Part shown: in pieces, positions 19,744 to 54,776 of the stretch
How the letters are laid out: each line of letters starts with the position of its first letter
Position numbering within the stretch: position 1 is the stretch's first letter
Virus record (IMG/VR): IMGVR_UViG_3300046054_000005
Span: 1-62,273 of that record
Direction: 5' to 3' (one strand)
Length of the DNA stretch: 62,273 bases
Source: a virus
Notes under the pieces: model-generated
Told to the model about the DNA's origin: nothing
The model's database searches: none
What the model saw: only the letters and a program-made list of their open reading frames with translations
Position numbers and translations under genes: made by a program

Positions 19744-19805
19744 TACTGCGACTGCGCCCGCGCCGCGCAGTTTCGGCCCCAACCAAAGGGCCTCATCAGG
19801 CAGCA
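19744..19805 (-). ncRNA. Hammerhead ribozyme candidate, type I.
   Basis: Minus-strand RNA: UGCUGC CUGAUGA GGCCC-UUUGGUUG-GGGCC GAAA CUGCGC-GGCGCGG-GCGCAG UC^GCAGUA. The core UGA is the stop of ORF 19796..20050. Confidence 0.75.
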
Positions 19806-22161: not shown

Positions 22162-22248
22162 TCGGACAGAGCGTCCGGCGGGCTGTACCGCGACGCCCCC
22201 TTCACGGAGAGGGCGTTTCGGGTGCGGCCAACACCCTCATCAGGCAGC
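22162..22248 (-). ncRNA. Hammerhead ribozyme candidate, type I, followed by a 3' flanking hairpin.
   Basis: Minus-strand RNA: GCUGC CUGAUGA GGGUG-UUGGCCG-CACCC GAAA CGCCCUCU-CCGUGA-AGGGGGCG UC^GCGGU, then hairpin CGGAC-GCUCU-GUCCG. The core UGA is the stop of the 22240..22500 gene. Confidence 0.75.
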
Positions 22249-25290: not shown

Positions 25291-25420
25291 GGCGTGTGTG
25301 GTGTGTTTGGTGATGAGTGCGAGTGTATTTCCCCCTCGTTGTGTTAGGGTAAATACACCTAAGGCACATGGGTTTCCTTGAAAAAGCCCTTTAATATTTT
25401 CTTTACAACCTATTCAAGCC
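25291..25420 (-). promoter_or_regulatory. Conserved early promoter/leader module, copy 3.
   Basis: Minus-strand TTGAAT-AGGTTGTAAAGAAAATATTAAAGGGC ... GGAAACCC ... TTTACCCTAACACAAC ... CACCAAACACACC-ATG. Confidence 0.6.
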
Positions 25421-27284: not shown

Positions 27285-27699
27285 CTCGCTCCGCAACATC
27301 CTCGGGGACGACCTCGATTGGGCGAAGCAAGAGAACCTGCTGGGTGAACACCTCGACGCCGTGCAGGGCGTTGCTGAACATTTTGGGTTGGACCTCGAAC
27401 CGGAGCGCGTCAAGACGCTCGTTCGGGGCCTCTCCCTGCACAAACTCACGAAGCGCCAGACCGTGAACGCAGTGCGCCTCCTGCTGCATGACACCGATTT
27501 CAAAGAGGGCCTGCGATATGGGGCGACCTTGCAGGCGCTTGACTTCGTGATCGTATTGCCGGAGGACGGAGCCTACTACACCGAACGACAGGTGGACCGC
27601 TTCGACCGCCTGACGGACTACGAGAAAAGCGTAGACTTTCACAAGGTCGGAGGCCCCGGCGAGAGAGACTGGATCTTCGATGCACCAAACACACCATGA
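27214..27699 (+). CDS. Hypothetical protein (helicase-loader position).
   Basis: 161-aa ORF with a single ATG, overlapping the initiator gene by 71 nt. Its ATGA overlaps the DnaB start. Confidence 0.4.
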   Translation: MSNSPKQRDENAISQKLARTSGSNSLRNILGDDLDWAKQENLLGEHLDAVQGVAEHFGLDLEPERVKTLVRGLSLHKLTKRQTVNAVRLLLHDTDFKEGLRYGATLQALDFVIVLPEDGAYYTERQVDRFDRLTDYEKSVDFHKVGGPGERDWIFDAPNTP

Positions 27700-33785: not shown

Positions 33786-34076
33786 ATGACAATGAACTAC
33801 GAGAACCTACCCGGCCCGGTCGATCCAATCTGGGCGGGTGACTGCACTCGTCGAGTGGTGCCCTACCTTCCTCCTCGCGCAGAGGTATTGGCGGTGAAGC
33901 AGAAGGGGCCAAGCACGGCAGTGTACATCAACTGCACTCCGGCTCTTGGCGAAGGCGCAACTCGACGTCTCGCCAGTGCCCTCCAGCACGATCCGGCGTT
34001 TAAAGAGCTATTCCACTTCACGCAGGGTCGCGAGATGGCCGTATATTTTACCACACCCAGCGGGGTGAAGCTCTGA
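33786..34076 (+). CDS. Hypothetical protein.
   Basis: 96-aa ORF. Its last 17 nt overlap the tRNA-like gene. Confidence 0.45.
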   Translation: MTMNYENLPGPVDPIWAGDCTRRVVPYLPPRAEVLAVKQKGPSTAVYINCTPALGEGATRRLASALQHDPAFKELFHFTQGREMAVYFTTPSGVKL

Positions 34077-34134
34077 TGGTACGAGCGCTGGCCTTCCAAG
34101 CCAGAGGTTGCAGGTTCGACTCCTGCCCCCCGCT
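34060..34134 (+). tRNA. tRNA-Gly(UCC)-like gene with an irregular acceptor/D junction.
   Basis: Manual cloverleaf. D stem gctc/gagc with GG in the loop. Anticodon stem ctggc/gccag with loop cTTCCaa. Variable loop aggtt. T arm gcagg-ttcgact-cctgc. The acceptor has 6 GC pairs plus one extra or mismatched nucleotide. No CCA is encoded. Confidence 0.5.
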
Positions 34135-34146
34135 CCCCATAAAACC

Positions 34147-38515: not shown

Positions 38516-38555
38516 GCAAAAGGCCGATGCCGGGGTGGTGCCCAGCATCGGCCTT
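38516..38555 (-). terminator. Intrinsic terminator after the UvrD-like gene (minus-strand sense).
   Basis: Perfect 11-bp stem aaggccgatgc / gcatcggcctt. On the minus strand it is followed by UUUGCGUU. Confidence 0.6.
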
Positions 38556-38564
38556 CCGTGCGTG

Positions 38565-40028
38565 TCACGAGCAGATCACAAGCTCGCGTTTGGTGCGGCT
38601 CTCCGCGACGTAGAGCAGGTTCCTTTCCTGCTTAAACTGCCACGCTTTTTGACCGGGCCATTCGAGCGGCAGCTTGTCCGGCTCGATGATGATAACGCGG
38701 TCATTCTCCAGCCCCTTCGCGCGGTGGACGCTGGAGAAGTAGACGCCCTCTTCGTCGTCGCTAAAGAGGCCCTTGATCTCGTGTTTGAGCATGGTAATGC
38801 TCGCGGCGTCGAACCCTTCGTAGCAGGCTTCGATGCACTGGACACGGTCGTCAAGCGCCCGAAACTGCGCCTTACTCGCGTCCTTTGCCTTGAGGTACTC
38901 CTTCCGGTCGGAGTGGTAGGTATGGAGGGCCGGAATTAGGTCATCGTAGCTGAACCCGGGGTCGTCGCTAACCTCGTCGAGAATATCGGTGAGTTTATAG
39001 GAGACGTCGCGACCCCGAATACGGGCAGGGATTTGCTTGCGCACGAGTTCGATGCATCGGCGGATGAGCGGCGCGTTCGTGCGAGACAGCACGAGGTCAC
39101 CGGGCCTCACCCTGTCCACGAACTGGCTTTCGCGCCAGTAGGCCACACTTCCCTCGTCGGCGTTCGGTGCAGCCTCGATGTGGGAGACAACGCGCTGGAG
39201 GCGCTCGACAACGCGCGTGGGGCAGCGGTACGTGACTGAAAGAGGGAGCCGGGTAGCGTCGGTGCGCTCGATGATAGTCGAGTAGCTGTCGGCGTCCGCC
39301 CCGCAAAAGCCGTAGATGGCCTGCCGCCGGTCTCCGACGAAAAGCATCCGCCCGTCATCGGCGCAGGAGCGGAGTGCTACCTCCAGCTGGCAGGCGTTCA
39401 GGTCCTGCGCCTCGTCTACCATGACGAAGGGGAACTCTTTGTAGTGAAGGTTCCAGTAGACAGGCAGGTAGATCATGTCGTTGAAGTCGATCTCGCCGCT
39501 CTGTTCGGCGATGGCGCGGCCCTGCTTGAGTACACTGCCCAACTCGCGCAGGTAACCGTTCGGCGGCAGGTCGTGCTTGGCGCAGAGGCGGAGCAGACCT
39601 TCCCGGTCGTCGGGATCCACGAGTTCGAGGCGGGCCATGTCCACAAGTTTCTTGAGGTTCTTGCGCGTCTCGGCGCGTTGGTCGTGCGGCAGGCTCATTT
39701 GCTTGACGTGCTCGCGGACGATATTCGTATACTTGCGCTTCTGCACGTCGAGCCGACCGATCATCCCAGCGAGGACGCCGTAACTGACGGAGTGGATCGT
39801 GCGCGCCCCCAGCGGGGTTTCGGTCAGGCGTTCGTTCAGTTCTTCGGCGATGTGTTTGTTGAAGGCGACGAAGAGGCCGTCTTCGTCGATGTGGTGAGCG
39901 GCCTCAACGAGGATCGTTGTCTTGCCGGACCCGGCGACCGCATCTACAACGGCGTGGCCGGAGCCGTTGTTGATCCAGTCAATGATACCGCGTTGGTACT
40001 CCGACGGTTCGTGTTCGAGCGTGTACAT
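38565..40028 (-). CDS. UvrD/PcrA-type SF1 helicase.
   Basis: AVAGSGKTT (Walker A), MVDEAQDLN, VGDRRQAIYGF, VHRAKGLE. Confidence 0.8.
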   Translation of the reverse strand: MYTLEHEPSEYQRGIIDWINNGSGHAVVDAVAGSGKTTILVEAAHHIDEDGLFVAFNKHIAEELNERLTETPLGARTIHSVSYGVLAGMIGRLDVQKRKYTNIVREHVKQMSLPHDQRAETRKNLKKLVDMARLELVDPDDREGLLRLCAKHDLPPNGYLRELGSVLKQGRAIAEQSGEIDFNDMIYLPVYWNLHYKEFPFVMVDEAQDLNACQLEVALRSCADDGRMLFVGDRRQAIYGFCGADADSYSTIIERTDATRLPLSVTYRCPTRVVERLQRVVSHIEAAPNADEGSVAYWRESQFVDRVRPGDLVLSRTNAPLIRRCIELVRKQIPARIRGRDVSYKLTDILDEVSDDPGFSYDDLIPALHTYHSDRKEYLKAKDASKAQFRALDDRVQCIEACYEGFDAASITMLKHEIKGLFSDDEEGVYFSSVHRAKGLENDRVIIIEPDKLPLEWPGQKAWQFKQERNLLYVAESRTKRELVICS

Positions 40029-40058: not shown

Positions 40059-40122
40059 GCCGTGACCGGAGGGGAGTGCCCCCCCCGGTTTCGCCTCGTT
40101 CCCGCGAGGCTCGTCAGGCGGC
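40059..40122 (-). ncRNA. Hammerhead ribozyme candidate, type I (A.C mismatch at the first stem I pair).
   Basis: Minus-strand RNA: GCCGC CUGACGA GCCUCG-CGGGAA-CGAGGC GAAA CCGGGGGGG-GCACU-CCCCUCCGG UC^ACGGC. The core UGA is the stop of ORF 40114..40500. Confidence 0.6.
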
Positions 40123-40500: not shown

Positions 40501-40526
40501 TGGACTGGTGTGTGTTCGTTGAAAAT

Positions 40527-40599
40527 GGTAGCGAGGTGCTACCGCGACCGGGGGAGTGTCCCCCGGTTTCGCCGCGCTTTCAGCGGCTCATCAGGCGGC
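40527..40599 (-). ncRNA. Hammerhead ribozyme candidate, type I, with a conserved 3' flanking hairpin.
   Basis: Minus-strand RNA: GCCGC CUGAUGA GCCGC-UGAAAGC-GCGGC GAAA CCGGGGG-ACACU-CCCCCGG UC^GCGGU, then GGUAGC-ACCUC-GCUACC. It starts directly after the TAA stop of ORF 40600..40818. Confidence 0.75.
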
Positions 40600-40818: not shown

Positions 40819-40945
40819 TGGACTAGAGTGTGTTTGGTGTGAGAGTGTGTTTTCCCTTCCCCCTTGTTGGGGTAGGGTAAAGCCCTTAAAAGCGCAGGGG
40901 TTTCCCTCGAAAAGCCTTTTAATGCTTTCTTTACAATCTATTCAA
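40819..40945 (-). promoter_or_regulatory. Conserved early promoter/leader module, copy 4.
   Basis: Minus-strand TTGAAT-AGATTGTAAAGAAAGCATTAAAAGGC ... AGGGAAACCCCTG ... TTTACCCTACCCCAAC ... CACCAAACACAC. Confidence 0.6.
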
Positions 40946-41261
40946 GCGCGGATCCCTTTTCTTCGGGGGCTACCTCGGGGATCAAGACACGGACTGCTTT
41001 TTCAGCGACGGGGCGGAGGTCTTCGTAGCCGTCAGGACAAGATTGCTTCATGCCTTCGGAGCCGTTCAGGTAAAGCACCTGGCGCACGGAGTCGAAGATG
41101 CCGTCGCGCGTCGGAGGGGGCCTGTCTACCAGCGGGTCTTCCTCACACCATACAAGGACGCAGGCGAAGCAATGCACGAGCCGTTTGTAGGTCAGGTCGT
41201 GCGAGACAGTTGTGCGCAGGTAGGGTGTTCCGTCGGGGTGGTAGCGGAGCTTGCGGGGCAT
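40938..41261 (-). CDS. Hypothetical protein.
   Basis: Start taken at MPRKLRYH inside track ORF 40938..41441. Confidence 0.4.
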   Translation of the reverse strand: MPRKLRYHPDGTPYLRTTVSHDLTYKRLVHCFACVLVWCEEDPLVDRPPPTRDGIFDSVRQVLYLNGSEGMKQSCPDGYEDLRPVAEKAVRVLIPEVAPEEKGSALE

Positions 41262-47413: not shown

Positions 47414-47439
47414 GGTAGTGTGGTGTGTTTGGTGAAAAT

Positions 47440-47509
47440 GGTAGCGAGGCGCTACCGCGACGCGCACCCACCTGCGCGTTTCGCCTCTCGCGGAGGCTCA
47501 TCAGGCGGC
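47440..47509 (-). ncRNA. Hammerhead ribozyme candidate, type I, with a conserved 3' flanking hairpin.
   Basis: Minus-strand RNA: GCCGC CUGAUGA GCCUC-CGCGA-GAGGC GAAA CGCGC-AGGUGGGU-GCGCG UC^GCGGU, then GGUAGC-GCCUC-GCUACC. The core UGA is the stop of the 47501..47980 gene. Confidence 0.75.
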
Positions 47510-54345: not shown

Positions 54346-54776
54346 TCCCCAACGCAGACGTTCCCAATCCTATGCTTTCCCCAGCCCTTCTCTTTTTCGC
54401 CCTTCTCGCGGGACTGACGCTCCAGCGCTCCTACGTTTACGAAGGCAAGCGCCTGCGCCCGTCCGGAAACGAGGGTACCGCGCTGGACGACGACGACGAA
54501 GAGGTCAAGATCCCCTCGCGCCTGCGCAAGCGCCTCGAAAAACAGGAGCGCGAGCAAGGCGAACTCACGTCGGACACGCCGATCCCCGATGACTTCCCGC
54601 ACGCAGACATTTTGAAGGAGAACGGTTTGGAGGTACTGGAAGGCGTCGCAGAGATCGAGGACTTTACGGAACTCGACGGCATCGGCGACAGCGAGGCGGG
54701 GCAGGAAAAAGCCAACGCCATCAAGACGGGCTTGACGTCGGCCAAGTTGAACCGGAAGCCCGCCAATGACGAGTGA
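54342..54776 (+). CDS. Hypothetical head-proximal protein (start 54342 GTG or 54372 ATG).
   Basis: 144-aa ORF. Confidence 0.4.
   Translation: MIPNADVPNPMLSPALLFFALLAGLTLQRSYVYEGKRLRPSGNEGTALDDDDEEVKIPSRLRKRLEKQEREQGELTSDTPIPDDFPHADILKENGLEVLEGVAEIEDFTELDGIGDSEAGQEKANAIKTGLTSAKLNRKPANDE

Follow-up and report, generated by a model that had tools for sequence, protein, structure and literature searches.

Does the minus strand between positions 40599 and 40527 of this phage DNA encode a self-cleaving RNA and, if so, does the hairpin that follows it belong to the ribozyme or to the mRNA that cleavage would release? These questions were addressed by analyzing the entire 62,273-nucleotide stretch in which the locus resides, hereafter called the window. 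The evidence favors a functional type I hammerhead ribozyme at 40599–40541 that is predicted to cleave and thereby to process its own polycistronic mRNA, with the hairpin serving as an accessory of the downstream message. We give this interpretation a probability of about 0.7. The locus, termed copy B, is one of six hammerheads that lie within polycistronic units on the minus strand of the phage, an uncultured virus with double-stranded DNA.

From 40599 to 40527, the minus strand reads GCCGC-CUGAUGA-GCCGC UGAAAGC GCGGC-GAAA-CCGGGGG ACACU CCCCCGG-UC/GCGGU-AGCACCUCGCUACC, where the slash denotes the predicted cleavage site. In its canonical type I reading, the hammerhead spans 40599–40541 and carries stems I, II, and III of 5, 5, and 8 pairs, respectively. 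The family consensus comprises C3 U4 G5 A6 N7 G8 A9, G12 A13 A14, the A15.1–U16.1 pair, and H17 (PMC3088659). Copy B presents these as CUGAUGA, GAAA, and UC within 40594–40546, with U16.1 paired to A15.1, such that 13 of 13 consensus core positions are present together with the three helices. Stem I is open and loops close stems II and III, which is the type I topology. When the 59-nucleotide element is folded alone, the minimum free energy (MFE) structure has the hammerhead shape (−32.7 kcal/mol, z = −3.0). A first-pass annotation had read this strand as a type I hammerhead located directly after a TAA codon. Both the letters and the fold are exactly as it described, the TAA touches the first base of stem I, and C17 is found at 40546, as expected for the scissile bond it predicted from sequence at 40546/40545. 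Coordinates of these and the surrounding features are collected in Table 1.

Table 1. Coordinates of the six hammerhead copies and of the features in the transcription unit of copy B
Feature	Position in window	Strand	Remarks
Stem I 5′ strand (GCCGC), copy B	40595–40599	−	Sequence reading
Core C3–A9 (CUGAUGA), copy B	40588–40594	−	Between the two phages, N7 alone varies
Stem II (GCCGC/GCGGC), loop UGAAAGC, copy B	40571–40587	−	Sequence, covariation, fold
Core G12 A13 A14 plus A15.1 (GAAA), copy B	40567–40570	−	Sequence reading
Stem III (CCGGGGG/CCCCCGG, loop ACACU) plus U16.1, copy B	40547–40566	−	Sequence, covariation, fold
C17, copy B	40546	−	Predicted cleavage 3′ of C17, between 40546 and 40545; from family consensus
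Stem I 3′ strand (GCGGU), copy B	40541–40545	−	5′ end of downstream RNA after predicted cut
Accessory hairpin GGUAGC-ACCUC-GCUACC	40527–40543	−	First 3 nt common with stem I; fold prediction
Unstructured leader	40501–40526	−	AUUUUCA, then CA-rich, to ATG; without Shine–Dalgarno motif
Upstream cistron, 72 aa	40600–40818	−	TAA stop (40602–40600) abuts stem I; ORF call
Downstream cistron, 128 aa	40114–40500	−	UGA stop is U4–A6 of copy C core
Promoter/leader-like repeat	40828–40948	−	Heads unit 72 aa, copy B, 128 aa, copy C, helicase; putative promoter
UvrD-like helicase gene	38565–40028	−	Downstream of copy C
Terminator-like hairpin plus UUUUG	38517–38566	−	After helicase gene; likely unit end
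Hammerhead copy A	47454–47509	−	Same hairpin as copy B follows at 47440–47456
Hammerhead copy C	40059–40122	−	A·C mismatch at pair 1.1–2.1; upstream of UvrD-like helicase gene
Hammerhead copy D	22187–22248	−	Descriptor and covariance model
Hammerhead copy E	19745–19804	−	Descriptor and covariance model
Hammerhead copy F	18555–18607	−	Extra U between A9 and stem II, kept in relative phage

The 5′ strands of stems I and II of copy B (window 40583–40599) are identical (GCCGC), and thus misfolding is possible. When the hairpin is included, the 3′ strand of stem II is paired in the predicted MFE structure with GCCGC of stem I. Stem I is short, at 5 pairs, and a search for contacts between it and stem II gave no convincing candidate.

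The window holds exactly six hammerheads, all on the minus strand, with C17 of copies A to F at 47459, 40546, 40064, 22192, 19750, and 18560, respectively. A descriptor encompassing the core and three stems finds these six minus-strand sites and none on the plus strand of the window. The corresponding chance expectation, derived from 200 dinucleotide-preserving shuffles searched on both strands, has a mean of 0.02 and a maximum of 1. A covariance model run with filters off gives six matches at 31 to 53 bits, and the next best match in the window scores 11.6 bits. The model was built from trimmed seeds and its seed contained all six window copies, so this gap indicates that there are no further copies and is not independent proof of the six. 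Descriptor and model agree with the count of six that had been claimed earlier. Copy F was missed by the first strict pattern because of an extra U after A9, and it was recognized when the sequence upstream of the recurring leader motif was read. In copy C, the stem I pair adjoining the cleavage site is an A·C mismatch (window 40059–40064; 3′ strand ACGGC), whereas a relative phage has a perfect GCGGU as the 3′ strand of stem I in the same slot. Given this difference, copy C may be weakened in the present genome.

Sequence variation points to selection on the RNA structure. When 25 distinct phage hammerheads were aligned to the model, 97.3% of cells were paired, although this percentage is inflated because the set was gathered with pairing-based descriptors and tools and then fitted to the model. 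Changes on both sides occur in 10 of the 15 pairs, slid controls are 31%–48% paired, and none of 500 shuffles reaches the observed values for pairing or covariation.

A cleaner test than this set of 25 is provided by a close relative of the phage, JGI contig Ga0496807_00036 (62,193 bp; segments L035 and L042). Its 128-amino-acid protein and SNF2 helicase are 86% and 94% identical, respectively, to those of the window, and six hammerheads reside in matching gene slots. Copies A and B were paired between the two phages by cassette type (common upstream gene), and copies C to F were paired by position. The cores of the two phages differ only at N7, the free position, in three of the six pairs. 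Between the two phages, a pair in stem III of the A-type cassette changes from A–U to G–C, and the first stem III pair of copy D changes from C–G to U–A in a shorter stem. Compensatory changes in the stems, another of the original claims, are thus seen both in the alignment of 25 and in this comparison.

Rfam does not recognize these elements. At Rfam gathering thresholds, no hammerhead is detected in the window or in its relatives, and the same thresholds also miss all IMG/VR examples and the hammerheads of the relative phage. The best Rfam match is Hammerhead_3 (RF00008) at 25 bits versus a gathering score of 48.5, which is an operational cut-off and not a biochemical criterion. No type I model is among the matches listed in an E-value search of the window. 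Within Rfam clan CL00010 (Hammerhead_1 RF00163, Hammerhead_3 RF00008, and others), the core and stem II of copy B match Hammerhead_3 locally, but the match is below threshold and its alignment is forced into a type III topology, which is wrong. As read from its letters, the motif carries every sequence and structure hallmark of the hammerhead family, and it falls short of the Rfam score cut-offs alone. A whole group of phage hammerheads is missed by standard Rfam annotation.

It had been reported that the 3′ flank of copy B is nearly identical to that of copy A, and indeed the two 26-nucleotide flanks (copy A flank, 47458–47433) have only one difference, an A versus a G in the hairpin loop. 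The 19-nucleotide 5′ end of the predicted product (40545–40527) folds at −8.4 kcal/mol (z = −3.5), and the same hairpin within the 45-nucleotide product folds at −9.6 kcal/mol. Four of the six window copies lack this hairpin. In the relative phage, the B-type cassette retains it with the loop AACUC, and the A-type cassette, which lies ahead of the gene for the 128-amino-acid protein, has UUUUUCAUCACCAAACACAC directly after it and no hairpin.

Three nucleotides of the hairpin, GGU, are part of the 3′ strand of stem I, and so the hairpin competes with the active fold and does not support it. When the hairpin is included in the folding calculation, the MFE structure forms the hairpin and loses stem I. 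By explicit energies, the full-hairpin state lies 1.7–2.0 kcal/mol below the state with stem I formed, a gap no larger than the error of the energy model when applied to three-way junctions. The stem-I-formed state admits just three to four hairpin pairs, which are those that do not overlap stem I. The loss of stem I from the predicted MFE structure means that the hairpin could inhibit cleavage.

The first-pass annotation offered two roles for the hairpin. The first, a tertiary contact within the ribozyme, is disfavored by the competition with stem I and by the absence of the hairpin from the A-type cassette of the relative and from most window copies. The second, a structure that stabilizes the 5′ end of the downstream mRNA, agrees with the predicted cleavage product and is a plausible role. 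The predicted 3′ product of copy B, which begins GCGGUAGC, consists of 2 free nucleotides, a 6-bp hairpin, and a fully open leader extending to the ATG (z = −3.6; −4.7 for the product of copy A). As in RiboJ, a hairpin therefore occurs within a few nucleotides of the processed 5′ end and is succeeded by an open leader. Phage hammerheads in general do not pair the first 5 nucleotides of their 3′ products beyond shuffles (0.71 versus 0.65). The hairpin is real, yet it is probably not part of the ribozyme but an optional accessory of the downstream mRNA.

All six copies reside in minus-strand units, where each is preceded by a stop codon and followed by an ATG that begins 35 to 62 nucleotides past the predicted cut. 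For copy B the ATG (40500) is 45 nucleotides past this site, and copies B and C flank one gene. Genes in these units, some of them for DNA metabolism, include those for UvrD-like and SNF2 helicases, a weak match to a pyrimidine-dimer glycosylase, DUF932, and many small ORFs that have no match. The unit of copies B and C probably terminates at the hairpin of 38517–38566, which is GC-rich, has 12 bp, and was not flagged by a strict terminator scan. This hairpin was also scored as a weak false match to FinP.

Repeats of ∼115 nucleotides occur in five copies on the minus strand (about 48125–47991, 40948–40828, 25419–25301, 23293–23167, and 20166–20073). They contain CTTGAATAGAATGTAAAGA..ATTAAAAGGCTTTT..GGAAACCCCTG..TTTACCCTAACACAAC..GGGGGAA.., and each copy ends in a CA-rich leader and an ATG. 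These repeats look like a phage promoter plus a common 5′ UTR heading each minus-strand unit. The leaders that would follow the ribozyme cuts are likewise CA-rich (CCAAACACAC or near variants), and no obvious Shine–Dalgarno motif is present in those that were read. Across the window, CCAAACACAC with up to one mismatch occurs at 13 sites versus 2.9 expected (for example, 40828–40837, 47423–47432, 25301–25310, and 27685–27694), mostly 10 to 25 nucleotides before an ATG and with no Shine–Dalgarno sequence visible. Its recurrence suggests that the host starts translation without Shine–Dalgarno pairing. A gene for tRNA-Gly (UCC) is present on the plus strand at 34059–34137, and a tRNA is also located at the corresponding site in the relative.

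The stop codon of the upstream gene is the UGA of the hammerhead core (U4-G5-A6) in five of the six copies (47501–47503, 40114–40116, 22240–22242, 19796–19798, and 18599–18601), and the JGI gene calls in the relative phage stop at the same core UGA. Thus, in these five copies the 5′ strand of stem I is translated. Copy B is the exception. The TAA of its 72-amino-acid ORF is located two codons earlier, in the same frame as the GCC GCC UGA that runs into the ribozyme core. The five proteins whose stop is the core UGA all end in Ala-Ala, and the preceding codons are GCC GCC, GCU GCC, or UCC GCC.

A stop codon in or next to the core could also indicate a translation-gated switch, wherein a ribosome at the stop occupies the 5′ strand of stem I, the hairpin captures the 3′ strand, and cutting is confined to messages whose upstream cistron goes untranslated. 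The same phase relative to the upstream ORF is maintained in all six copies, and hairpin and stem I are mutually exclusive structures of near-equal energy. However, no other phase would terminate the ORF as early as the observed one, which may thus be a consequence of tight gene packing, and four of the six copies lack this hairpin. We consider this explanation unlikely. If true, a phage operon would have a natural means of coupling mRNA scission to translation status.

Alternatively, the hairpin and the AUUUUCA sequence after it might constitute a weak intrinsic terminator or attenuator that fixes the relative amounts of the upstream and downstream cistrons without involving the ribozyme. The arrangement of a 6- to 7-bp stem, one base, and then four U residues resembles such an element, the likely genuine terminator after the helicase gene also has just UUUUG, and the hairpin-less cassette of the relative has UUUUU directly after stem I. 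The stem is weak, however, by the folding energies given above, there are only four U residues and these come after an A, the tract in the relative is CUUU, and the terminator scan did not flag the hairpin. Moreover, stopping about 30 nucleotides past the cleavage site would yield a useless fragment. These considerations make a terminator quite unlikely.

A third explanation would return the hairpin or its flank to the ribozyme, as a scaffold on which loop II (UGAAAG) forms a pseudoknot with the YUUUCA immediately beyond the hairpin, so that stems I and II are kept in parallel. All hammerhead types commonly contain pseudoknots (PMC3088659). In copy B, loop II can form five Watson–Crick pairs with UUUCA (p = 0.05), the same cassette in the relative can form six between UGAAAG and CUUUCA (p = 0.007), and UUGGUU of copy E is able to pair with AACCAA. 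Yet UUUCA also follows copy A and the A-type cassette of the relative, whose loops II (CGCGA and CACGA) are unable to pair with it. The statistics are weak, no compensatory change accompanies the pairing, and the full hairpin excludes stem I. On balance, a pseudoknot of this kind is very unlikely.

A-type and B-type cassettes do not occupy the same slots in the two phages. In the relative, it is the A-type cassette that precedes the 128-amino-acid gene, and the B-type cassette precedes another gene. A gene for 72 amino acids is called upstream of this B-type hammerhead (L035 2161–2379), and its DNA is 82.6% identical to that of the window. The homology partner switches exactly at the 3′ edge of two hammerheads (window 47454–47461 and 40510–40515 versus L035 2069–2107 and 9969–9986), and the two genomes have exchanged the genes that follow the A-type cassette and the B-type cassette. 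The two cassettes thus sit at mosaic joints. As judged from the homology map, one inversion between two hammerheads fails to reproduce the gene order of the relative.

These switches and slot changes could suggest that the hammerheads serve mainly as portable junction cassettes or as linkers for recombination, whose common stem I, core, and leader sequences would allow gene modules to be exchanged, with any expression effect secondary. However, mosaic joints in phages usually fall at gene boundaries in any case, and the strict conservation of the core, together with the compensatory changes in the stems, indicates selection on the RNA fold and not on DNA homology alone. This explanation, too, is very unlikely.

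Hammerheads of this kind are present in other viruses. A pattern scan of IMG/VR identified 15 viral contigs whose hammerheads have the same stem I (CCGC/GCGG) and are often clustered. In an unrelated phage lineage (IMG/VR contigs L001 and L003), seven type I hammerheads occur within about 5 kb (L001 5678–10567), each preceding a gene, and a conserved CUGCAAUGGAG motif resembling a ribosome site comes after each. In several of the 3′ flanks of this lineage, ACCGC, the sequence of the stem I 5′ strand, recurs and could pair with the new 5′ end. The cultured Pseudomonas phage phita81A (PQ738200.1, about 54351–54399; segment L166 1499–1547) has an unannotated hammerhead-like type I motif (23.4 bits, model R1) that is intergenic and about 240 nucleotides upstream of a tRNA-Thr gene.

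Searches for more distant kin were largely negative. No hammerheads were found in the parts examined of two SNF2-helicase relatives (L044 and L045; 65%–66% helicase identity) or in helicase relatives L016–L034. Since the examined parts of L044 and L045 are without a hammerhead, the elements seem confined to a narrow lineage. A megablast of 14 kb against known phages produced no match. No relatives of the 128- and 401-amino-acid proteins were found in IMG/VR and none of the latter in metagenome contigs, a search of contigs carrying DUF932 homologs gave nothing useful, and the exact pattern of the stem I 3′ strand plus hairpin was absent from IMG/VR. The metagenome pattern GTCGCGGT-N0-30-CCAAACACAC had more than 120 matches, which were rejected as chance matches because none of the 80 that were fetched has a hammerhead.

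Most likely, the ribozymes function in the self-processing of early mRNAs, dividing polycistronic messages into individual cistrons. Transcription would begin at the repeat of 40948–40828, proceed through the 72-amino-acid gene, copy B, the 128-amino-acid gene, copy C, and the helicase gene, and end at the hairpin of 38566–38517. Once stems I, II, and III and the core have been transcribed and are free of ribosomes, the RNA would cut itself 3′ of C40546. The upstream fragment would retain its stop codon, and stems II and III, both GC-rich hairpins, would form its terminus together with a 2′,3′-cyclic phosphate, an end that should resist 3′ exonucleases. The downstream fragment would start with a 5′-OH, and the short 5-bp stem I would dissociate, whereupon its GGU could be incorporated into the hairpin. 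This would leave 2 free nucleotides and a terminal hairpin followed by the 26-nucleotide unstructured CA-rich leader ahead of the ATG. In copies A and B, the hairpin might thereby trap the product, prevent reversal of the cut, and cap the new 5′ terminus in the manner of RiboJ.

These steps agree with the finding that cleavage by the tandem hammerheads of polycistronic prophage RNAs occurs both in vitro and in vivo in E. coli (PMC3088659), and with the proposal that cistrons come to differ in stability or translation efficiency through the action of such ribozymes (PMC6765202). Formation of a circular mRNA from the cistron flanked by copies B and C was judged unlikely, because the hairpin would oppose re-pairing of the ends.

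The role of hammerheads in bacteria and phages is still called largely elusive (PMC6765202). This locus is a compact natural test case, as it comprises a short operon with two hammerheads around one gene, one of which has a competing 5′ hairpin and the other none. The sister phage, with no hairpin ahead of the same 128-amino-acid gene, offers a contrast for any effect of self-cleavage on the stability or translation of a cistron.

Among known systems, RiboJ consists of the sTRSV hammerhead followed by a 23-nucleotide hairpin and raises mRNA and protein levels; the leftover hairpin is proposed to stabilize the message and expose the ribosome site (PMC6206723). Copy B shares the order of a hammerhead (here predicted to self-cleave) and then a hairpin at the downstream 5′ end before the translation start region. 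However, RiboJ is engineered and its hairpin uses no ribozyme bases, whereas copy B is natural, with an optional hairpin that overlaps stem I by 3 nucleotides.

The closest parallel is provided by the type I hammerheads described in 2011 in phage and prophage polycistronic transcripts, where they occur in multiple copies between genes (Perreault et al. 2011, PMC3088659). The core consensus, open stem I, location between cistrons, and presence of several copies per operon are all alike. In contrast to those examples, the elements described here have other stem sequences, a stop codon in the core in five of six copies, a hairpin overlapping stem I in two copies, and a CA-rich leader without a Shine–Dalgarno motif, and none of the six is detected by Rfam models. 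The stop codon in the core, the hairpin that overlaps stem I, and the homology breakpoints at hammerhead 3′ edges may be previously undescribed. These three details leave the category of the element unchanged: since hammerheads between phage genes have been known since 2011, copy B is a further example of this group and not a new kind of element.
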